From Minisyncoccia bacterium (GTDB lineage: Bacteria; Patescibacteriota; Minisyncoccia; Phycocordibacterales; XYD1-FULL-46-19), in NCBI GenBank assembly GCA_041601795.1, contig JBFIHK010000001.1, positions 1 through 48,369 on the forward strand: DNA of 48,369 bases, read 5' to 3'. Each line of letters starts with the position of its first letter. Positions within the stretch are counted from its first letter, which is position 1. Under the pieces are notes generated by a model. It searched no databases, was not told where the DNA came from, and was given only the letters and a program-made list of their open reading frames with translations. Position numbers and translations under genes: made by a program. Shown piece by piece: positions 5,745 through 45,033 of this stretch.

Positions 5745-6956
5745 TCATTGTAGCAAACGCCCACGTCTTTTTCTATGGTAAGACAAAGCAAAACGATGGG
5801 CTTCATTGTTAGCTAAGAGAATTTCCATTTCATACTGACGAGCTAGTGTGCCCGAACCAATTATTTCTCTTGGCTTATGATGCTTATCTTTTACTACCGC
5901 TACAACAGGAATATCAAAGCCTAAAGTGGTCAAAATTTTTTCGCCCGCTTTTAACTGATTTCTACCCCCATCTAAAACAATTAAATTAGGTAGTGGCCAC
6001 TCCAGATGATCAAAGCGACGCTCTAGAACTTCTTTTAAATTTAAAATATCATTATTTTTATCGAGTCCAGCCCCTTTAATTTTAAATTTTCTATAATCAC
6101 TTTTAAAAGGTGTACCATCTTTTATCACTGTCATTACCCCAATAGTATCCTTACCACTGGTATGAGCAATATCGTAAGCCTCGACCCGTAAAGATGCGCT
6201 ACTTTTTTTATTTTGCAACAAAGCAATATCATTGACGTGTTTTAAAGTAAAAATTCTATCCCGATAAACAGCCGCTAGCTCAAAATTCTGTTTTAAAATA
6301 GCTCGCTTCATGTCTATATTTACCTTTTTAATCAAAGCCGATTTTTTTCCTTGGAAAAATAAGCGTAAATGATTAATGGTTCTGGCATATTCTTTTTTGG
6401 TTATTTGCTTGCTACACACCCCTGGACATAAACCTACTTGAGCCGAAAAACAAGACTGACCAGTTTCGGGTTTACATTTATCTCTAAAAGGAAAAATTTT
6501 TCTAATTATTTTTAAAGCTGTTTTTAATTCTGACGCCTTAGGAAAAGGGCCGAAAGTATATTTAATGTCTGTTGGTTCCCATACTTCTACCAAGTCTTTA
6601 CCTCGAACGGCCAAAACTCTAGGCCAATCTTCTTTGGTTACGATCACATAAAGATAACTCTTATCGTCTTTGGCTTTAGTATTGCCGCTAGGTTTATGTT
6701 TTTTAATTAAACTTGACTCTAGAATTAAAGCCTCCAACACAGAATCTGTTTGATGCCATTTTAATTCATCGGCCCCTTCCACAATATTAGCCACCAAAGG
6801 CCCTCGAGTATCCATGAGGTCAGACCCAAAATAACTACTTACTCTATCTTTTAGGGAAGTAGCTTTCCCGATATAGGTTATTTTGTTTTGAGCTAGAAAA
6901 AAATAAACTCCAGGTTCATCAGGTAGTTTGTATTTTTTTAAATCTTGTTTTTTCAT
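5745..6956 (-). CDS. uvrC: excinuclease ABC subunit C, short form
   Basis: GIY-YIG (PGVYFF, YIGKA), Cys cluster CKPETGQSCFSAQVGLCPGVC, UVR helix FELAAVYRDRIFTLKHV and RNase H-like nuclease block RVEAYDIAHTSG. Ends at EAHRFALSYHRKRRG. ATG at 6956 has GGAG 9 nt upstream; the track start at 6974 is TTG. Confidence 0.9.
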   Translation of the reverse strand: MKKQDLKKYKLPDEPGVYFFLAQNKITYIGKATSLKDRVSSYFGSDLMDTRGPLVANIVEGADELKWHQTDSVLEALILESSLIKKHKPSGNTKAKDDKSYLYVIVTKEDWPRVLAVRGKDLVEVWEPTDIKYTFGPFPKASELKTALKIIRKIFPFRDKCKPETGQSCFSAQVGLCPGVCSKQITKKEYARTINHLRLFFQGKKSALIKKVNIDMKRAILKQNFELAAVYRDRIFTLKHVNDIALLQNKKSSASLRVEAYDIAHTSGKDTIGVMTVIKDGTPFKSDYRKFKIKGAGLDKNNDILNLKEVLERRFDHLEWPLPNLIVLDGGRNQLKAGEKILTTLGFDIPVVAVVKDKHHKPREIIGSGTLARQYEMEILLANNEAHRFALSYHRKRRGRLLQ

Positions 6957-6978
6957 AAAATAACTCCATGACAAGAAA

Positions 6979-9633
6979 CTAGTCCTTGTGTTTTTTATTT
7001 TTCGCTTGTTTTAATATTTTATTTAAATAAAAACCAGTATGGGTGTCTGTTTGGGCTATTTCTTCTGGAGTACCCTTGGCCACTAGCTTCCCCCCTCCAG
7101 AACCCCCTTCTGGTCCCATATCTATAACATAATCAGCATTTTTAATCACATCTAAATTATGTTCAATTACAACCACCGTATTACCTTTATCAACTAAACG
7201 TTGTAAAATGGCTACCAAATTTTTAACATCTTCATAATGAAGACCCACTGTTGGCTCATCTAAAATATAAATGGATTTTTGTACAAACGGACGATACAAT
7301 TCTGAAGATATTTTAACCCTTTGGGCTTCTCCGCCAGACAAAGTGGTGGCCGACTGACCAAGTTCTAAATAACCCAAGCCAACTTCATTTAAGGTTTTCA
7401 AACGATCGCTAATGGCTGGAATATCACGAAAAAATTCAAATGCCTCCTCAACCGTCATATGTAAAACATCGCTAATATTTTTATTTTTATATTTTACCTC
7501 TAAAGTCTCTTTTTGGAATCGACTTCCTAAACAAACATCACAAGTCACATAAACTGTTGGCAAAAAATGCATTTCAACGGCAATAGTACCGTTTCCTCCA
7601 CAAGCTTCACAACGTCCACCTTTGACATTAAAAGAAAAACGTCCGGGTTTCCACCCTCTGACTCTAGCTGTTTCTGTACTAGCAAAAACTTCTCTAATCC
7701 AAGTAAAGGCACCAGTATAAGTGGCTGGATTAGACCGTGGAGTCCGCCCAATAGGAGACTGATCGATCAAAATAGAGCGTCCTAAATATTCACTACCAGC
7801 AAACTCGTCACAATTAAAAATTTCATTTGATCTAGCTTTTCGATTAAACTTAGCTTGAAGATTTTTATATAAAATTTCATAGACAAAACTAGATTTACCC
7901 GAACCAGACACTCCGGTAATAGCTACCAATTTACCTAAAGGAACATCAACATTTAAATTTTTAATATTAAAAATTTTACCTCCCTTTACTCTTAACTTAC
8001 CCTTATTAGCTTTTCTTCTAGTTTCTGGTAAAGGCACTCTCTTTTCACCTCGTAGATAATCTACCGTTAAGGAATTGTAATTATTAGTTTTACTGGTCAA
8101 TAATTTTTCTGTTTTATCTGCTACCACTACACTGCCACCATGAACACCAGCCCCAGGGCCAATGTCAACCAAAAAGTCAGAAGCAAAAATAGTGTCCTCA
8201 TCGTGTTCGACCACAATAATAGTGTTACCCAAATCGCGCAAATCAAGTAGAGTTTGAATTAATTTGTCATTATCTCGACTATGCAAACCAATAGTCGGTT
8301 CATCCAAGACATATAAAGTACCCACCAAACGCGACCCCAATTGAGAAGCTAAGCGAATTCTTTGAGCCTCACCCCCAGATAAAGTATTGGCCCGCCTATC
8401 TAAAGTAATATAATCTAAACCAACATCTAACAAAAATTTAAGCCTAGACTCTATTTCTCTTAAAATCATTTCGGCAATTTGTTTATCTTTTTTACTTAAA
8501 GTTAAATTTTTTATAAATTCACTAGCTTCTTTAATAGACAAACCAGTAAAGCCGACGATGTTTTTTTTATCTTTAGAACTCTCTAAAAACACCTGCAAAG
8601 CCTCCTTCCGCAACCGATAACCACTACAGTCAGGACAAGATTTAGTACTATATAAATTTTTAGTCCCTAAACCATGGCAAGTTGGACACGCTCCATAAGG
8701 TGAATTAAAAGAAAAAAGTCTAGGTTCTATTTCTGGAAAAGAAAAACCATCTCGGGGGCAAGCAAATTTAGCCGACAACAATATTTCAATTAAAGACTCG
8801 GCTAACACATTGTTTTTAAGACTTGCCCGACCAATCACCACTCGAACTAAACCCTCAGATTCATCTAAAGCTCTTTCTACTCCTTCTACTAGCCGACTGT
8901 AAGCATTATCATAAGAAGCTTCTTCTACTTTAGCTTTTAAAGATGTCTTAGTTAAATCTTGAGCCTTAAAATCGGCTATTTCTATTTCATCTATTAATAC
9001 ATCTATATCGTGTTTTTTATTTCGAGCTAACTCTATTCTGTCTCTTAAATTATATCTTTTTTCATCTATCAACACTTCCGAATAACCTTTGTCTAATAAA
9101 TCATACAACAGTTGATAATATTCTCCTTTGCGCCCCCTTATAACTGGAGAGTAAATTTTTACAGTTTCAGCAGTCGGTTTTTTAATATTGTCTTTAATTT
9201 GATCTAAGACAAAATTAACTATTTCATCGTTAGACAATTTATTTATTTCTTGCCCACACAAAGGACAAAAAGGTTTACCGATACGAGCATACAAGACTCG
9301 TAAGTAATCATAAATCTCTGTAATAGTGGCCACAGTTGATCGTGGGTTTTGCGACCTAGATTTCTGGTCAATAGAAATAGCCGGAGACAAACCAGTAATT
9401 TCATCCACTTCTGGTTTTTGCATTTGACGTAAAAATTGCCTTGCATAAGAAGATAAAGATTCAACATAGCGTCTTTGTCCCTCGGCAAAAATAGTATCAA
9501 AAGCAAGACTTGATTTACCTGAACCAGACAGTCCAGCAATAACTACCATCTCGTCGCGGGGTATTTCTAAGTCTATATTTTTTAAATTATGTGTCTTAGC
9601 TCCTTTAATTGTTATTTTTTTCTCGTCTTTCAC
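6979..9633 (-). CDS. uvrA: excinuclease ABC subunit A
   Basis: 884 aa, GTG start. Two ABC modules (GLSGSGKSS, GVSGSGKSS; two LSGGEAQR signatures) and zinc-finger Cys pairs. Confidence 0.95.
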   Translation of the reverse strand: MKDEKKITIKGAKTHNLKNIDLEIPRDEMVVIAGLSGSGKSSLAFDTIFAEGQRRYVESLSSYARQFLRQMQKPEVDEITGLSPAISIDQKSRSQNPRSTVATITEIYDYLRVLYARIGKPFCPLCGQEINKLSNDEIVNFVLDQIKDNIKKPTAETVKIYSPVIRGRKGEYYQLLYDLLDKGYSEVLIDEKRYNLRDRIELARNKKHDIDVLIDEIEIADFKAQDLTKTSLKAKVEEASYDNAYSRLVEGVERALDESEGLVRVVIGRASLKNNVLAESLIEILLSAKFACPRDGFSFPEIEPRLFSFNSPYGACPTCHGLGTKNLYSTKSCPDCSGYRLRKEALQVFLESSKDKKNIVGFTGLSIKEASEFIKNLTLSKKDKQIAEMILREIESRLKFLLDVGLDYITLDRRANTLSGGEAQRIRLASQLGSRLVGTLYVLDEPTIGLHSRDNDKLIQTLLDLRDLGNTIIVVEHDEDTIFASDFLVDIGPGAGVHGGSVVVADKTEKLLTSKTNNYNSLTVDYLRGEKRVPLPETRRKANKGKLRVKGGKIFNIKNLNVDVPLGKLVAITGVSGSGKSSFVYEILYKNLQAKFNRKARSNEIFNCDEFAGSEYLGRSILIDQSPIGRTPRSNPATYTGAFTWIREVFASTETARVRGWKPGRFSFNVKGGRCEACGGNGTIAVEMHFLPTVYVTCDVCLGSRFQKETLEVKYKNKNISDVLHMTVEEAFEFFRDIPAISDRLKTLNEVGLGYLELGQSATTLSGGEAQRVKISSELYRPFVQKSIYILDEPTVGLHYEDVKNLVAILQRLVDKGNTVVVIEHNLDVIKNADYVIDMGPEGGSGGGKLVAKGTPEEIAQTDTHTGFYLNKILKQAKNKKHKD

Positions 9634-38939: not shown

Positions 38940-40538
38940 TTATTCGTAACCTCTACTAATTGCAGATTCAAGTGTATTGTAAACAATTGGCATTTTATTT
39001 TTAAAATCTTCTAAAGTTATTGATTCTGCAACACTAACCGCATATGATATTTTTTCATCACTCGAGATTTCATCTTTCTCTTTTTTATGATCTTCAGGAT
39101 AATATTCTTCAATGGTTTCAGTTTCTAGTATATGTATTTGTTCTCCTTCTTTTAACCAAGGATGTGCTTCTTTAAACTTTGTAAAATTAGACTCTTGTTC
39201 GGAATTAGGTAAATCTAAAAGAAAAACTACCTTGTCTTTATATACACCATTGGTCAAAAGAGGTGTGTAGCACTGGTTTATTGCATGATAAATCTCTTTA
39301 TGTTTTTCAGAATCACCACGAGCAAATATTATTTTAATATTTAAACATTTCTTATTTTCACTATAAAATCTTTCAATAATTTTATTTATAAAATGATATT
39401 CAGTTTGACCTTCTACAATTATAAAATTACTTGGTAATAATAAATCATTTGGACTACCTCCCAGTAATTGATAAATAGAATTTAATCTATCCTGTTCGCT
39501 TTCCACTTTCTCTAACCTAGAATCACCTTCTATCTTAACAACATTGAATATATTTTGATTTTCATAATTTTCATTAGCAAAAACTGAAGAATGGGTATTT
39601 ATAAAAACCTGACCACCATTATCAATAATATCTCTAAGAGCTTTTTTTAATGATCTTTGTGCTGACGGGTGTAAATGTAGTTCGGCTTCATCAATTAAAA
39701 ATATGAAATTTCTAGCAATACCTTGTTCTTTTCTATAGTCTGCATATGATTGAATGATTGCTAGCATTATTGCACGCTGCATACCATCTCCTTTATTTTC
39801 TGCTTTAGTCTTTATGCCATCATCTATTTCAGTATCAAAGCCTTTTAACATGTCCTCAATCTTTGGATTCTGTATACTAAAATCGACAGTAGTATCTTCG
39901 GAAAATTGTTTTTGAAGATAAAATTCAACTTTCTTCTCTAGAGAGTCTACTGAATTTCTAAAAACAGATCCTTCAGAATTAAACAACTCATCAAATAGTT
40001 TTATGAACTCCTTGTATTTAGGATCATTATTTATTACATCTGATAAAACACCAGACAACATCTCAGCAATTGGGGTTTTTGATTTATAACCAGAAACATC
40101 TCCTAACTTTATCTTAGTAGTAACATATTCTATTTTAGGTAAAAAATAATTTAATGCTGCATCAAAACCTGTAGGATTTCCCACACTTTCTCCATTTACA
40201 ATCATAAACCTTTTATCATCTTCGCTAGTCTTCTCTAAAATAAATTCGTCGTTTTCTCCGAGCACGTTTTCGATTACTTTCTTGTATCTTTCATTTTCCA
40301 GATTTTCTAAAGAACTTCCGACATTACTATAGTGGACCCTTATCTTAATAGGATTTGTTTTCTGATGTTTATAATAGTTGGAGTCCACAGTTTTTCCAGA
40401 ATCAAACCAATCTAGAGCTTCAAACAAATTTGTTTTACCATGATTATTTTGACCAACAAATACGTTAAAATCATTTACATCAAAATCATATCTCTTAATT
40501 GATCTAAAATTTTCAATTTCTATCCTAGTAATTTTCAT
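38940..40538 (-). CDS. OLD-family-like ATPase-Toprim nuclease
   Basis: 532 aa. IEIENFRSI, Walker A GQNNHGKTN, signature-like GDGMQR, Walker B FLIDEAELHLHP, INTHSS, then the Toprim-type IIVEGQTEYHF. Confidence 0.75.
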   Translation of the reverse strand: MKITRIEIENFRSIKRYDFDVNDFNVFVGQNNHGKTNLFEALDWFDSGKTVDSNYYKHQKTNPIKIRVHYSNVGSSLENLENERYKKVIENVLGENDEFILEKTSEDDKRFMIVNGESVGNPTGFDAALNYFLPKIEYVTTKIKLGDVSGYKSKTPIAEMLSGVLSDVINNDPKYKEFIKLFDELFNSEGSVFRNSVDSLEKKVEFYLQKQFSEDTTVDFSIQNPKIEDMLKGFDTEIDDGIKTKAENKGDGMQRAIMLAIIQSYADYRKEQGIARNFIFLIDEAELHLHPSAQRSLKKALRDIIDNGGQVFINTHSSVFANENYENQNIFNVVKIEGDSRLEKVESEQDRLNSIYQLLGGSPNDLLLPSNFIIVEGQTEYHFINKIIERFYSENKKCLNIKIIFARGDSEKHKEIYHAINQCYTPLLTNGVYKDKVVFLLDLPNSEQESNFTKFKEAHPWLKEGEQIHILETETIEEYYPEDHKKEKDEISSDEKISYAVSVAESITLEDFKNKMPIVYNTLESAISRGYE

Positions 40539-40569
40539 AATCTGATTGTAGCAAATACAACCAATTATA

Positions 40570-40911
40570 TTAAGTAATTAGACTGTGTAGTTCATTAAAA
40601 CCGACTGGTTCACAATCAAACTTCTTCAGCCTTGAAAGTGAAACACTAGCTCCATTATTAGAAATTTCCTTTAGCCTGTCTTTTGAAAGAACATAAAACT
40701 CCCATTGATTCATATCTAGAATATCTAGTGTCTTGTGATCTTGATGCTTAAATAGAGACAACACATAAACATCAGCTTTATAATCTTTCTCGGCTTTTAC
40801 CTCAGATTGTTTCTTTACAACAGAGTAGTAATGGGTACCAAAGAAAAAATAGAGGTCAAAGATATTGACATACGAAATTATATGAAATATCTCCTGAAAG
40901 AGGGTTCTCTT
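40570..40911 (-). pseudogene. 5'-truncated PD-(D/E)XK-like nuclease remnant
   Basis: The frame is open for 113 codons, but the first usable start is the GTG at 40764, downstream of the nuclease-like core NIFDLY...SEVKA. C-terminal part ADVYVLSLFKHQDHKTLDILDMNQWEFYVLSKDRL. Confidence 0.35.
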
Positions 40912-40978
40912 TTAGAAAAAAGAGAACTACTTGGATGTATCAAAGGTAAGATTATTTTAAATAATAAAAAAGTCTCAA

Positions 40979-41740
40979 TTATTTAGAAGGCCTTGTGTTT
41001 GTAAACTCATCTAACTTGTCAGGATGTTCTTTTAAAAGATAGCGCTGGATAACTAAATTCATGTAAGAGTTTTTTAATCTAAAAGCTCTAACCTCTGCAG
41101 GTTTATCACTAAAAGGTTGTGAGGTTTTAGATTTACCACAAGAAGGATCTTTAAATTTACCATTATGTTTAGGGCAAAGGGTTAGATATTTATGTTGGTG
41201 TTGATGTATTTCATGTGCCTCACCATTCTTTATGAATTCTATAATCTTTAAGTAATCTTCATTCAGTTCTTCAAGAACTTCTTCTGTCATTTCCCAAATG
41301 AATACATACTTGATTAAATATTTTGACCTAGGGACTTCCTTGTCATGAACATACCAAACGAACAGGATTTTTTTATTCTTCTTATACAAAGATGATTCTT
41401 TAATATGTTTATTGTTATGCTCTTCAGAATAATTAATGATATTCAAAGAAAGTGGTTCTTTGACCGTAAGTCTTCCGTTCTTTAATAATTTGAGCGGACT
41501 AGTCTTCAGTTCAACATCTAAGTGTTCTATGTCTGCACCTGCTGTACTATTCTTAGGTATACCAAAATAACCGTATTCAATAGCATATCCGACTCCAGCC
41601 TTAGTAAGGACTCGACTACTTTCGTCATCATCTACAATAGAAGACATAATTTCTTCTAGTGTCCTTCCCTCTAAATCTTTCTGGGCAATTTTCTCTAATT
41701 CCTTAACAGTCTTTATTTGCTTTAAATTTAGCTTTGACAT
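40979..41740 (-). CDS. MutH/Sau3AI-fold endonuclease, single domain (candidate restriction subunit)
   Basis: 253 aa. KAGVGYAIEYGYFG...GADIEHLDVELKT gives D70-x6-E77-x-K79, the same spacing and numbering as E. coli MutH D70/E77/K79. Confidence 0.85.
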   Translation of the reverse strand: MSKLNLKQIKTVKELEKIAQKDLEGRTLEEIMSSIVDDDESSRVLTKAGVGYAIEYGYFGIPKNSTAGADIEHLDVELKTSPLKLLKNGRLTVKEPLSLNIINYSEEHNNKHIKESSLYKKNKKILFVWYVHDKEVPRSKYLIKYVFIWEMTEEVLEELNEDYLKIIEFIKNGEAHEIHQHQHKYLTLCPKHNGKFKDPSCGKSKTSQPFSDKPAEVRAFRLKNSYMNLVIQRYLLKEHPDKLDEFTNTRPSK

Positions 41741-41804
41741 ATATAGAGAAATATACTAAAAATCTTGATCTTACACAATTTATGTGGCACAAATTATAGA
41801 CAGC

Positions 41805-41833
41805 TTGATCGAAAATTATAAGAATGTTAATAT
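41805..41833 (+). promoter_or_regulatory. candidate methyltransferase promoter whose -35 hexamer contains GATC
   Basis: TTGATC (41805-41810)-N17-TAATAT (41828-41833). The ATG at 41844 follows 10 nt after the -10. Confidence 0.35.
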
Positions 41834-41843
41834 GATAATACTT

Positions 41844-43109
41844 ATGAAAAAACCAATTAAAAAAATAAGAGTCGTTGAGTTATTTGCTGGTGTCGGTGGC
41901 TTTAGACTTGGACTAGAAGGCCATAAAGGAAGCAGGAAGTCTCATCATAATAATTATGAAACTATTTGGTTCAATCAGTGGGAGCCATCCACAAAAAGAC
42001 AACATGCTCATGAAACTTATGTAAAGAATTTTGGAGATGTAGATGAGTATACAAATATTGATGTAGCAAAAGTTACAGATAAGGTTCCTGACCACGACCT
42101 ACTAGTTGGTGGATTTCCTTGTCAGGATTACTCCGTAGCGAGAAATCTATCTTCTTCTGCAGGACTTGAGGGAAAGAAAGGTGTTCTATGGTGGTCGATC
42201 TATAACATCTTAGAAAAGAAAGGAAAGAAAGCTCCTGATTATTTGATGCTAGAAAATGTAGATAGACTTCTAGTGTCTCCAGCTTCTAGAAGAGGTCGTG
42301 ATTTTGCGATTATACTTTCTTCATTAAACAAACTTGGGTATATGGTTGAATGGCGAATTATTAATGCCGCAGAATATGGATTTCCTCAAAGAAGGAAAAG
42401 GATTTTTATAATGGGATATAAAAAGGGTTCGGAAATTGAAAAGAAATTTAAGAAAGAGAAAGATGTAGAAAAATGGCTTAGCAAAACAGGTCTTACTCAA
42501 AAAGCATTTCCTGCAAATATTGTAAGTGGTTTTAATTATTTTGAATTAAATTCTGACCCTGTTGAAGTGTCTAATAATTTCAATACAGAAAATCCAAAAA
42601 CATCACCATTTCAAAATAGTGGAATAATGTTTGATGGAAAAGTTTACACAGCAAAAACAAAAGAAAATTACATAGGAAAATTCGTAACACTTGGAGACAT
42701 TCTGATTTCAGACAAAGAAGTTCCTGAAGAGTATTACATCAACAAAGATGACTTAAAAAAATGGAAATATTTGAAAGGAGCAAAAAATGAGCCTCGAAAA
42801 GCAGCCAGTGGTTTTGAATTCATATACAAGGAAGGATCTATGACATTCCCAGACGCATTAGATAGGGCCTCTAGGACAATCATTACTGGTGAAGGTGGAC
42901 CAACACCATCTAGGTTCAAGCATGTTATTGAAACAAAGAAAGGTTTACGCAGATTAACACCCATTGAACTAGAAAGATTGTGTATGTTCCCTGATTACCA
43001 CACAGATGGTCACACTGACTCAAAACGAGCTTTCTTTATGGGTAATGCTTTGGTTGTTGGAGTTATAGACAGATTAGGTAAAGTCTTGGCAGATTTACAC
43101 AATAGTTAA
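41844..43109 (+). CDS. DNA (cytosine-5)-methyltransferase
   Basis: Motif I ELFAGVGG, IV GGFPCQDYS, VI LENV, VIII QRRKR and X GNALVV. Start ambiguous: ATG 41844, ATG 41832 or GTG 41784. Confidence 0.9.
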   Translation: MKKPIKKIRVVELFAGVGGFRLGLEGHKGSRKSHHNNYETIWFNQWEPSTKRQHAHETYVKNFGDVDEYTNIDVAKVTDKVPDHDLLVGGFPCQDYSVARNLSSSAGLEGKKGVLWWSIYNILEKKGKKAPDYLMLENVDRLLVSPASRRGRDFAIILSSLNKLGYMVEWRIINAAEYGFPQRRKRIFIMGYKKGSEIEKKFKKEKDVEKWLSKTGLTQKAFPANIVSGFNYFELNSDPVEVSNNFNTENPKTSPFQNSGIMFDGKVYTAKTKENYIGKFVTLGDILISDKEVPEEYYINKDDLKKWKYLKGAKNEPRKAASGFEFIYKEGSMTFPDALDRASRTIITGEGGPTPSRFKHVIETKKGLRRLTPIELERLCMFPDYHTDGHTDSKRAFFMGNALVVGVIDRLGKVLADLHNS

Positions 43110-43112
43110 AAA

Positions 43113-44888
43113 TTAGGTGAAGTGTTCAACCAAATCTGTTATTAAATTATCACTTTTATAATAACCAATAGGATTAAATTCCTTAGTTTTGGTATCAAAA
43201 TAAATCAAATTTTCTTTTTTCAAGAAAGCTTTTTCTTCAAACTTTTTCCATTTATCCAAAGTAGCCTCAACCACTTCTTTAAGTTCATTTTTCTTCCACG
43301 AAGTTCCAATCAAAGTATATGTAGCTATCATAGTTACAGCAATGTCACCATATCTTAAACCAAATCCACATTTACCAACAAACCATCCATTAACAGGTTT
43401 TCTAGCTTGTTTTTTTAATAGCTGAACCTCTCGATAAACGAGGTATGAAAGAACATATTTAGAGTAGTTGCTTTTAGTAGTAAGTATCTTAAATATTTCA
43501 TCTGAAAATAGAAAGTCTTCAGATAAATTTTTAGGGTTTTTAATTTTCTCAGGAAAGCCTGAGGCATAGGCCATTTTTATAAATTCATTACGATTAATCA
43601 CGTCCTCTTTCTTAATATACAAATTATTAAGACTGTTTAAAAATTCTCCTTTTTTTCTTTCATAATACAAGTCAAATTCTTCAAATATGTACTTCTGAAG
43701 AGCTGCTTGAGAATCATGATTAGACAATAAATCTCCCTTACTAATTGAGGATTGATTATTAGTAGCTAATGAAACTGGACCAGTAATATTATTGTATTTC
43801 TCAGTATCATTCTGAACAATTACTTTCAATAAGACTTCTTTATCTTTGAAAGGATTTTTTGCAAACTCTTTTTTTAAAAATCTTTTATATATATGACTTA
43901 GTGTAAATGATGTTTGACCACCATTAATGATTTGAGGGTCTTTTATTGTTATCTCACCAGTTCTTTTTTTACCAGTATTTTCTGTATACAAGGATTCTGT
44001 AGAGAGCATAGTAATTCCGTTGTTCAATAAAACAAAATCATTGGTATCCTTCTTGAGAATAGAATCTTCAATCTTTTTGTTAACACCCTTAGCATTCATA
44101 CCCAGATAAGTTCTTGGATTATATTTCAGTATTGAATTCTTATATCTAGTAAGTGCCTTTGCTATTTCTTCAGTAGGAATAAATATCATAAATATTGTAC
44201 ATACCCCATATTCTGTCTTTACTTCATAATTAATCGGTTTTTTATCAGCACTCGATAACAAAATATTGAAACTCAACTTATTTTCATTAAAAAAGTCATC
44301 TCTGATATAAGGAAAAAGTAATTCATCATAAACCTTATAATAATTAAAAACTTTGATATCCCATTCTTTTGGAAAATGAGTAGTGAGTATATATTTTTTT
44401 TGTAATTCAGTGAGATTAGCCACGAGTACAACCACAAATTTATACTCTGAAGGATTTTTTAAATTTCTTAACTTCTTTTGAAACTCAAGAATCTTTTTAT
44501 TATACTGATGCCCATCAAAGCTCTTTTTCTCACCAGTGGTGACTCTTTCTAAATCCATCCTCCATAAATCCTTGTTATCTATGTCAGTTTTTACATAACC
44601 CCTAGCACTGTTTCTGAATTTTGCCTGAATTAAATAAACTAACTTTTCCTCATTATTTATATAGTACGCATCAATACCACCATCATTAGCTCCTTCAGTA
44701 ACCAGATTCTCTCTTTGTTTAAAATCTAAAATACCAAAGTAACTTTTAATAAAAAAATGTATCAGGGCCCTTGACCTCGCACCCTCGATGTCAACCTTAC
44801 CGTTCTCAGGTAGATATAAATCTAAATTAGATTCTGCATTGACTCTTATTTTATCAATGATTTTTACTAAGACGTTATATTTATTCAT
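43113..44888 (-). CDS. AIPR family abortive-infection protein with Mrr-like N-terminal nuclease motif
   Basis: 591 aa. N-terminal GANDGGIDAYY...YLIQAKF (Mrr-cat-like D...QxK) and AIPR core NPRTYLG...VNKKI...LLNNGITM...IINGGQTS. Confidence 0.85.
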   Translation of the reverse strand: MNKYNVLVKIIDKIRVNAESNLDLYLPENGKVDIEGARSRALIHFFIKSYFGILDFKQRENLVTEGANDGGIDAYYINNEEKLVYLIQAKFRNSARGYVKTDIDNKDLWRMDLERVTTGEKKSFDGHQYNKKILEFQKKLRNLKNPSEYKFVVVLVANLTELQKKYILTTHFPKEWDIKVFNYYKVYDELLFPYIRDDFFNENKLSFNILLSSADKKPINYEVKTEYGVCTIFMIFIPTEEIAKALTRYKNSILKYNPRTYLGMNAKGVNKKIEDSILKKDTNDFVLLNNGITMLSTESLYTENTGKKRTGEITIKDPQIINGGQTSFTLSHIYKRFLKKEFAKNPFKDKEVLLKVIVQNDTEKYNNITGPVSLATNNQSSISKGDLLSNHDSQAALQKYIFEEFDLYYERKKGEFLNSLNNLYIKKEDVINRNEFIKMAYASGFPEKIKNPKNLSEDFLFSDEIFKILTTKSNYSKYVLSYLVYREVQLLKKQARKPVNGWFVGKCGFGLRYGDIAVTMIATYTLIGTSWKKNELKEVVEATLDKWKKFEEKAFLKKENLIYFDTKTKEFNPIGYYKSDNLITDLVEHFT

Positions 44889-44962
44889 AATAATGAATCA
44901 TACCAAATAACAGAGTTTTATATAATTGAAGCACCTCGTACTCCGAACCTACCTCACACTAG

Positions 44963-45033
44963 CTGCCGGACTAGGACTCGAACCTAGATTAACTGGACCA
45001 AAACCAGTCGTCCTACCATTAGACGATCCGGCA
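44963..45033 (-). tRNA. tRNA-Gln (anticodon UUG), CCA not encoded
   Basis: Reverse complement TGCCGGATCGTCTAATGGTAGGACGACTGGTTTTGGTCCAGTTAATCTAGGTTCGAGTCCTAGTCCGGCAG. U1:A72 and G73 as in bacterial tRNA-Gln, anticodon loop UUUUGGU, T-loop TTCGAGT. Confidence 0.9.

Follow-up and report, generated by a model that had tools for sequence, protein, structure and literature searches.

How could a nuclease of the size of MutH, with one catalytic domain, serve in a restriction setting when Sau3AI, the characterised restriction enzyme of the same fold, has two? The question is raised by a locus from a Minisyncoccia bacterium (GenBank assembly GCA_041601795.1, contig JBFIHK010000001.1, positions 1 to 48,369 of the forward strand; "the window" below means this whole stretch of 48,369 nucleotides). 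Two divergent genes in the window encode a 253-residue nuclease, here called R, and a C5-cytosine DNA methyltransferase, here called M. From comparison with known systems, we consider that the two probably form a two-gene Type II restriction-modification (R-M) cassette directed at GATC, in which the nuclease corresponds to a free-standing Sau3AI catalytic domain.

Identity of the nuclease and its partner

The R protein matched the whole of the Pfam MutH profile PF02976 (positions 1-103 of 103, E = 6.9e-25, 87.3 bits against a cut-off of 23). Against NF040973, the NCBIfam equivalog for the "Sau3AI family type II restriction endonuclease", it scored 183.5 bits, below the cut-off of 300, and the match covered positions 7-226 of 475, which is the N-terminal half only. 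Scores against the two MutH equivalogs were far under their cut-offs (61.3 bits against 243 for NF003458 and 48.4 bits against 229.9 for TIGR02248). A sequence search of the PDB gave Sau3AI as the best match (4pxg, chain residues 30-243, E = 4.3e-27), followed by E. coli MutH (2azo, E = 4.5e-6). R is a member of the MutH/Sau3AI-fold superfamily and of the group of Sau3AI-N-like catalytic domains, and it fails the two-domain definition of the Sau3AI family proper. Of the two domains of Sau3AI, R matched the catalytic N-terminal one only.

Residues D70, E77 and K79 of R align with D70, E77 and K79 of MutH in the PDB alignment (chain numbering +3), and the catalytic triad does lie at the identical positions that had been read from the sequence at the outset. 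The core pattern of R is D-(X)6-E-X-K. In the same alignment, E55 is paired with MutH E56 and K121 with MutH K116. The position of MutH H112 is occupied by S117 in R, and Sau3AI also has a serine there. The CPKH loop of R is found at residues 189-192, and in alignments C189-x-K191 falls on the MutH loop R-P-K. An AlphaFold2 model of R, built with 27 homologues in the input, had a mean predicted local distance difference test score (pLDDT) of 87 and a predicted template-modelling score (pTM) of 0.86. Foldseek placed this model closest to Sau3AI (E = 9e-16), with a probability of 1.00 for both Sau3AI and MutH and target-normalised template-modelling (TM) scores of 0.79-0.80 against MutH-DNA complexes; the Sau3AI C-terminal domain was more remote (2e-5). 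The MutH/Sau3AI fold that had been proposed for the 253-residue protein is confirmed by PF02976, by the N-terminal half of NF040973, by the PDB matches and by the model.

A homologue search of 5.8 billion proteins with R returned 237 matches, and in the best 120 clusters, from which sizes and identities were taken, all proteins were 223-286 residues long and 57-88% identical to R. The named sources of these clusters were Patescibacteria (the Candidate Phyla Radiation, CPR) and Nanoarchaeota, and the source annotations of the homologues read "MutH/Sau3AI family endonuclease" or "MutH". A library of representatives at 50% identity contained 978 matches to R. Beyond R's own family, the nearest relatives (approximately 30-40% identity) were mostly two-domain proteins of 440-510 residues, both halves of which match R. 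When 29 homologous loci (described below) and the window were searched with a hidden Markov model of 45 C-terminal domains, the one-domain gene itself was the only match. In a neighbour-joining tree rooted on the C-terminal domains and drawn without support values, the one-domain proteins of the CPR and the DPANN archaea formed a single clade, sister to the N-terminal domains of all two-domain enzymes. Other short representatives were scattered within the N-domain clade; several of them end in the inter-domain linker, and they are probably fragments.

At 35 positions, conservation is 90% or higher among the one-domain proteins of the clade and 75% or higher among 45 N-terminal domains of Sau3AI relatives; these positions include K47, E55, D70, E77, K79, K94-E95, K121, C189, K191, Q208, R218, K223 and Y226. 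Every catalytic residue of R falls within this near-invariant set. The C-terminal domains of the two-domain enzymes lack D70, E77 and K121. We considered whether R could be a truncated pseudogene of a two-domain enzyme, and this was ruled out by the uniform length of its homologues, by their having a clade of their own and by the lack of any C-domain remnant. On these comparisons the one-domain form is the native state and not a truncation. The clade is large and spans bacteria and archaea, and the activity of its members is predicted. Its architecture had been posed as a puzzle by the initial annotation, and it turns out not to be rare, since RefSeq already names one-domain proteins of this type generically as "MutH/Sau3AI family endonuclease". 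A literature search for a characterised one-domain relative of Sau3AI, for experiments on the Sau3AI N-terminal domain and for CPR methylomes found nothing relevant among the papers available. One homologue of 402 residues (P0122), 61% identical to R, has an extra C-terminus of approximately 170 residues with a GDSM motif recalling S24/LexA-type peptidases; the extension may belong to a genuine fusion protein, or it may result from read-through in gene calling.

R resembles Sau3AI, LlaKR2I and DpnIII (Type IIE/IIP, GATC) in its homologous catalytic domain, its C-x-K loop, its 5-methylcytosine (m5C) methyltransferase partner and the logic of the gene pair. Unlike them, it is without the whole C-terminal MutH-like effector/autoinhibitory domain of approximately 230 residues, and it stands in a clade outside all of the two-domain N-domains. 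MutH is similar to R in size and fold, and the equivalents of E56, D70, E77, K79 and K116 occur at nearly the same numbering, but the two proteins are only about 20% identical, the partner of R is a C5-methyltransferase rather than Dam, there is no MutS/MutL context, the R gene is mobile and patchily distributed, and H112 is replaced by serine. A similar pair is carried on a plasmid (NZ_CP120471) of the cultured haloarchaeon Haladaptatus sp. DYSN1 (WP_277506047.1/WP_277506048.1), where a 283-residue one-domain endonuclease with the TCPKHN loop that R also has is divergent from a dcm gene whose product is 43% identical to M, although the nucleases are only 28% identical. This pair is annotated in RefSeq, and our literature search found no characterisation of it. 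On a plasmid of Haladaptatus sp. QDMS2 (L033, NZ_CP119793.1), a one-domain endonuclease gene directly follows the pglZ gene of a BREX-5 system, with the matching Dcm approximately 20 kb away.

The mechanically called open reading frame (ORF) of M begins with a GTG at 41784 (41784-43109, 441 residues), but the probable start is the ATG at 41844, because alignments with homologues begin at residues 20-28. M matched PF00145 over profile positions 1-322 of 324 (E = 7.5e-61, 206.8 bits), scored 226.5 bits against TIGR00675, and was matched end to end by the PADLOC model MTase_II PDLC03329 (544 bits). Motifs I (FAGVGG), IV (GFPCQ), VI (ENV), VIII (QRRKR) and X (GNA) are readable, and R is indeed divergent from a complete m5C methyltransferase, as had been stated from the sequence. 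On a Priestia plasmid, the Dcm next to a two-domain Sau3AI-family gene shares 48% identity with M; the Mycoplasma hyorhinis Dcm (probably Mhy3), which lies upstream of a two-domain Sau3AI homologue, shares 46%. These alignments, and the one with the Haladaptatus Dcm beside its one-domain endonuclease, span the variable target-recognition domain (TRD). A survey of 72,556 plasmids found 22 records with a match to the Sau3AI-family nuclease, and each of them also carried the Dcm subfamily of M. In four megaplasmids of the Bacillus cereus group (NZ_CP125990.1, NZ_CP053657.2, NZ_CP109873.2 and NZ_CP133558.1) a distance of more than 100 kb separates the Sau3AI-family gene from the matching Dcm.

For locus comparison, five loci fetched by exact protein were joined with 24 from contigs of one genome per species, giving 29 loci, or 26 non-redundant ones including the window. 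Dcm directly adjoins R in all 29 (26 of 26 non-redundant, with the window counted), and this adjacency is kept though the orientation varies: the genes are divergent in 15 non-redundant loci and the window, convergent in several archaeal loci and tandem in two. In the 21 fetched loci outside the five archaeal ones, the Dcm is 45-77% identical to M. All-against-all clustering of the ORFs within 5 kb found R and Dcm to be the only clusters common to 26 of 26 loci, and among the other real genes the most common neighbours were a large serine recombinase, present in 8 loci if the remnant in the window is included, and Vsr, present in 7. R and M are separate, tightly linked and co-inherited genes, as expected for a Type II system. 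The placement of this MutH-sized single-domain nuclease in an R-M rather than a mismatch-repair setting, as first suggested, has therefore held up across the loci, where a Dcm always adjoins it.

The predicted recognition site and the control region

The characterised relatives covered by the literature consulted, MutH, Sau3AI, LlaKR2I and DpnIII, all act at GATC, and GATm5C is made by the Sau3AI-type systems DpnIII, LlaKR2I, M. hominis DCM2 and M. hyorhinis Mhy3. By homology we infer that the R-M specificity is GATC/GATm5C, both for the sequence and for the position of the methylated base. M would then make GATm5C, and R would recognise unmethylated GATC and cut 5' of the G. Indirect support comes from the homology of the TRD of M, from the complete plasmid co-occurrence and from the enrichment of GATC between the two genes.

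The divergent R/M control region (Table 1) contains two direct CTTGATC boxes. The M-proximal one overlaps a -35-like TTGATC, which is followed, after a 17-nt spacer, by a TG-extended -10-like element, TGTTAATAT. Two boxes lie 38-40 bp apart in 9 of the 16 divergent bacterial loci (the window counted), and at least one box is present in all 16; in a tandem bacterial locus TTGATC is found upstream of both genes. The intergenic alignment has a mean identity of 44%, and the GATCAAG block (CTTGATC on the M strand) holds most of its invariant columns. Between R and M, GATC was counted 30 times where the same loci would lead one to expect 3.6 occurrences, an 8.4-fold enrichment (P = 5e-18) in loci that are related by descent. 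A consensus promoter and terminator scan returned 13 sites against 12.3 expected, which is the background level, and the promoter assignment for R and M therefore rests on conservation across loci instead; we take these promoters as putative.

The boxes are a likely sign of the system's own recognition site having been built into its control region, and their conservation suggests a simple methylation-feedback circuit. The ratio of M to R could be tuned by promoter methylation, by analogy with the CfrBI R-M system, which is regulated by methylation of the cognate site in its promoter. As in CfrBI-type regulation, the recognition site lies within a divergent promoter region; unlike it, there are two boxes here rather than one. 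In this cassette, control would have been shifted from enzyme allostery to gene expression through the GATC boxes, one of which lies over the -35-like hexamer of M.

Of the 4-bp palindromes of the window, GATC shows the strongest depletion, with 76 occurrences against 99.9 expected; the depletion is mild (observed/expected ratio, O/E, 0.76). Over 25 R-M loci there were 550 against 1044 expected (O/E 0.53, z = -15; median 0.50). The control set consisted of 54 loci of at least 8 kb around BipA homologues in related metagenomic CPR contigs (L036-L115), taken whatever their R-M status. Their aggregate O/E was 0.66 and their median 0.68 (a marginal difference from the R-M loci, Mann-Whitney p = 0.065). 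GATC was also their most under-represented 4-bp palindrome, and their distribution was bimodal, with 22 loci at an O/E of 0.5 or less and 32 at 0.62 or more. The pattern suggests that GATC-directed restriction acts, or has acted in the past, on a large fraction of related CPR genomes.

Several points weigh against our reading. We rejected GATC avoidance as proof of specificity, since the control CPR loci show the same trend; the avoidance is lineage-wide, and it is compatible with a GATC system and not specific to one. The predicted specificity follows from homologues that are 27-40% identical in the case of R and 43-48% in the case of M. The Dcm of the five archaeal loci belongs to a different family, with 25-31% identity to M, and no GATC boxes were found in archaeal loci. 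TTGATC resembles a generic -35 hexamer, and its conservation may in part reflect promoter function apart from methylation. The lack of support values in the tree described above also counts here, as does the weak Foldseek similarity of the R model to the single-domain enzymes BcnI and MvaI (2oaa and 2odi; E = 0.05-0.9, TM approximately 0.3), which makes these enzymes a mechanistic precedent only in the discussion that follows.

The low identity of R to characterised enzymes could also point to a Type II pair of the same fold that recognises something other than GATC itself, such as a longer or degenerate site. The promoter boxes extend beyond GATC, and the recognition loop of R reads CPKH where the two-domain enzymes mostly have C-T-K-G. 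However, GATC has been retained over the far larger distance between MutH and Sau3AI, and the TRD of M aligns throughout with those of GATC-type partners; we judge a different site to be distinctly unlikely.

Proposed cleavage by a single domain

The C-terminal domain of Sau3AI is described as a non-catalytic allosteric effector and as autoinhibitory, blocking the catalytic cleft as long as no GATC site is bound to it. The initial annotation had held this second domain to be needed for double-strand cleavage, a view that does not agree with its description in the literature as an allosteric effector or autoinhibitory domain, nor with the cutting of both strands by BcnI and MvaI, which are described as single-domain MutH-fold restriction enzymes acting as monomers. 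MutH-fold enzymes are reported to bind the whole site as monomers, and the same has been proposed for the catalytic domain of Sau3AI. Because the effector domain is absent, R is presumably neither Type IIE nor site-activated, and it would probably need neither a second site nor a protein partner. GATC is a perfect palindrome, and therefore a monomer would be free to act on either strand when the DNA is unmethylated. We propose that R acts, in the manner of BcnI and MvaI, as a monomer with one active site that would clamp the whole palindrome, nick one strand, rebind the other way round and then nick the second strand. Within the overall model, we give sequential nicking by a monomer about an even chance.

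BcnI and MvaI resemble R in having one MutH-like PD-(D/E)XK domain of approximately 240 residues and in belonging to an R-M pair, and their single active site nicks sequentially with reorientation. They are a ready precedent for the puzzle posed by R. Their sites (CCSGG and CCWGG) and their N4-methylation partners are different, however, and no sequence similarity to R was detected, so that the likeness is an analogy of mechanism and not family membership.

The main alternative to the sequentially nicking monomer keeps the same GATC R-M system and has R work as a conventional homodimer, or as a dimer formed on the DNA, with the two strands cut in a single binding event. For Sau3AI, dimer formation on DNA was the original description (Friedhoff 2001), and a 2026 preprint still has its activation occur "by dimerization". 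Most Type IIP enzymes acting at palindromes are likewise described as homodimers. MutH, BcnI and MvaI, on the other hand, are each described as binding the full site as monomers, and the R model superposes on monomeric MutH-DNA complexes with the high TM scores given above. A homodimer seems unlikely to us on this evidence.

R could also be a strand-nicking enzyme that makes no deliberate double-strand break and restricts through nicks alone, given that each polypeptide has one active site and that MutH is a nickase. MutH nonetheless cuts both strands at a fully unmethylated GATC. Since the site is palindromic, a monomer able to bind in either orientation would end up nicking each strand when the site is unmethylated, and no feature was found in R that would impose a choice of strand on unmethylated DNA. 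We regard restriction by nicks alone as very unlikely.

The MutH fold, the triad at identical numbering and the constant presence of a neighbouring Dcm raise the question of whether R might instead be a repair nuclease. It could be a Dcm-linked analogue of the Dam/MutH system that serves mismatch repair by nicking hemimethylated GATm5C in its unmethylated strand, or a Vsr-like T:G nickase. At half-methylated sites Sau3AI nicks the strand without the modification, which would be in keeping with such a role. In its strongest form, R would be a nickase directed by GATm5C hemimethylation, a Dcm-based counterpart of Dam/MutH that marks the nascent strand for repair or recombination in the CPR and DPANN; we hold this, like a repair role in general, to be highly improbable. 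A repair role is unlikely because the scores against the MutH models are so low, because MutS and MutL are not found nearby, because the pair is patchily spread across domains as a mobile element with recombinases and transposases in the vicinity, and because genuine Vsr genes occur beside the pair in seven loci. The serine in place of H112, shared with Sau3AI, also speaks against it. The window ORFs of at least 500 residues include no MutS or MutL, in line with what had been reported for this stretch; they encode UvrA, UvrB, AcrB, BipA, HlyD, PIF1, a histidine kinase, OLD and AIPR. No Dam, MutS or MutL was found in the 48-kb window, and MutS and MutL are not among the conserved neighbours of the R-M loci. 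A Vsr-like role was rejected, since real Vsr genes already fill it where they co-occur with the pair.

The one-domain clade offers a natural experiment on the role of the second domain of Sau3AI. If a catalytic domain of approximately 250 residues restricts at GATC by itself, the effector would be a later regulatory addition, and MutH-fold enzymes would in general be able to make double-strand breaks as monomers. It is possible, as a milder reading, that the one-domain clade represents the free-standing ancestor from which a duplication gave the two-domain Sau3AI, with methylation of the promoter GATC boxes exerting the control that the effector has there. A compact GATC enzyme with sensitivity to m5C and no need of a second site might find use as a reagent or, like MutH before it, as the scaffold of programmable nickases.

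Mobility and the defence island

The R-M pair lies in an island (38940-45033) with a GC content of 0.29-0.35, compared to 0.37-0.41 in the flanks, the trough extending from approximately 38.9 to 45 kb. Its features are collected in Table 1.

Table 1. Coordinates of the R-M pair, its control region and the surrounding island in the window.
Feature	Position	Strand	Remarks
Old-type ATPase-TOPRIM gene	38940-40538		532 residues; PADLOC stand-alone system Old
Serine recombinase remnant	40804-40986	+	60-residue C-terminus; convergent with R and overlapping its 3' end
R, single-domain Sau3AI-N-like/MutH-fold PD-(D/E)XK endonuclease	40979-41740	-	253 residues; profile, PDB and model matches
Divergent R/M control region	41741-41843	.	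Two direct CTTGATC boxes, 40 bp apart
R-proximal box	41764-41770		GATC at 41767; between the -35-like and -10-like elements just ahead of the start of R
M-proximal box	41804-41810		GATC at 41807; overlaps -35-like TTGATC
M, C5-cytosine DNA methyltransferase of the M.Sau3AI-partner type	41844-43109	+	Probable ATG start; 421 residues
AIPR/AbiU gene	43113-44888		591 residues; PADLOC stand-alone system AbiU
tRNA-Gln	44962-45033	-	Bounds the island

The recombinase remnant is 55-60% identical (tblastn) to residues 380-441 of the intact 441-residue recombinases of loci L001 and L009, in which the intact gene converges on R at the position of the remnant in the window; L010 also has an intact copy there. 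The OLD gene and an orphan ORF of 64 residues without homologues (40570-40764) fill the site of the deleted recombinase part. The remnant is most readily seen as the relic of the mobile element that carried the R-M pair. The R homologues in the DPANN loci L018, L020, L021, L023-L025, L027 and L028 are 54-62% identical to R at the amino acid level, and the sharing of R by DPANN archaea and CPR bacteria therefore implies transfer of the cassette between domains. We suggest that the cassette has travelled with the large serine recombinase and now resides in the defence island flanked by tRNA-Gln. It is among the more widespread R-M systems shared by the CPR and DPANN, and it bears on barriers to gene transfer and on genetic manipulation.

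Since genes for OLD and AIPR flank the pair in the window, the initial annotation had proposed that R might be a latent nuclease switched on by one of these defence proteins, the OLD-like ATPase-TOPRIM or AIPR. In one other locus (L004/L005) an OLD-like gene with UvrD does lie directly downstream of R, a further case of defence genes gathering near the cassette, but that OLD-like protein is of another family. No homologue of the window AIPR was found in any of the 29 fetched loci (tblastn, 1e-5), and the same search with the window OLD found none next to R and one weak OLD-like match approximately 8 kb away in L009. The window OLD replaces part of the deleted recombinase, and PADLOC assigns OLD and AIPR to stand-alone systems. 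Activation by either neighbour was rejected for want of conserved linkage, and the proposal has hardly any probability left. Old, the R-M pair and AIPR/AbiU are apparently three independent defence modules gathered in one island.

Vsr genes were found in L023 (8631-9041), L024 (1632-2030), L027 (3514-3930) and L028 (8632-9048), and also in L007, L013 and L025; in DPANN loci the Vsr gene lies between R and the different Dcm family. In L004/L005, from a Pacebacteria metagenome-assembled genome, the OLD-like ATPase-TOPRIM and UvrD genes (5768-8423) have a Gabija-like arrangement and are followed by a transposase.

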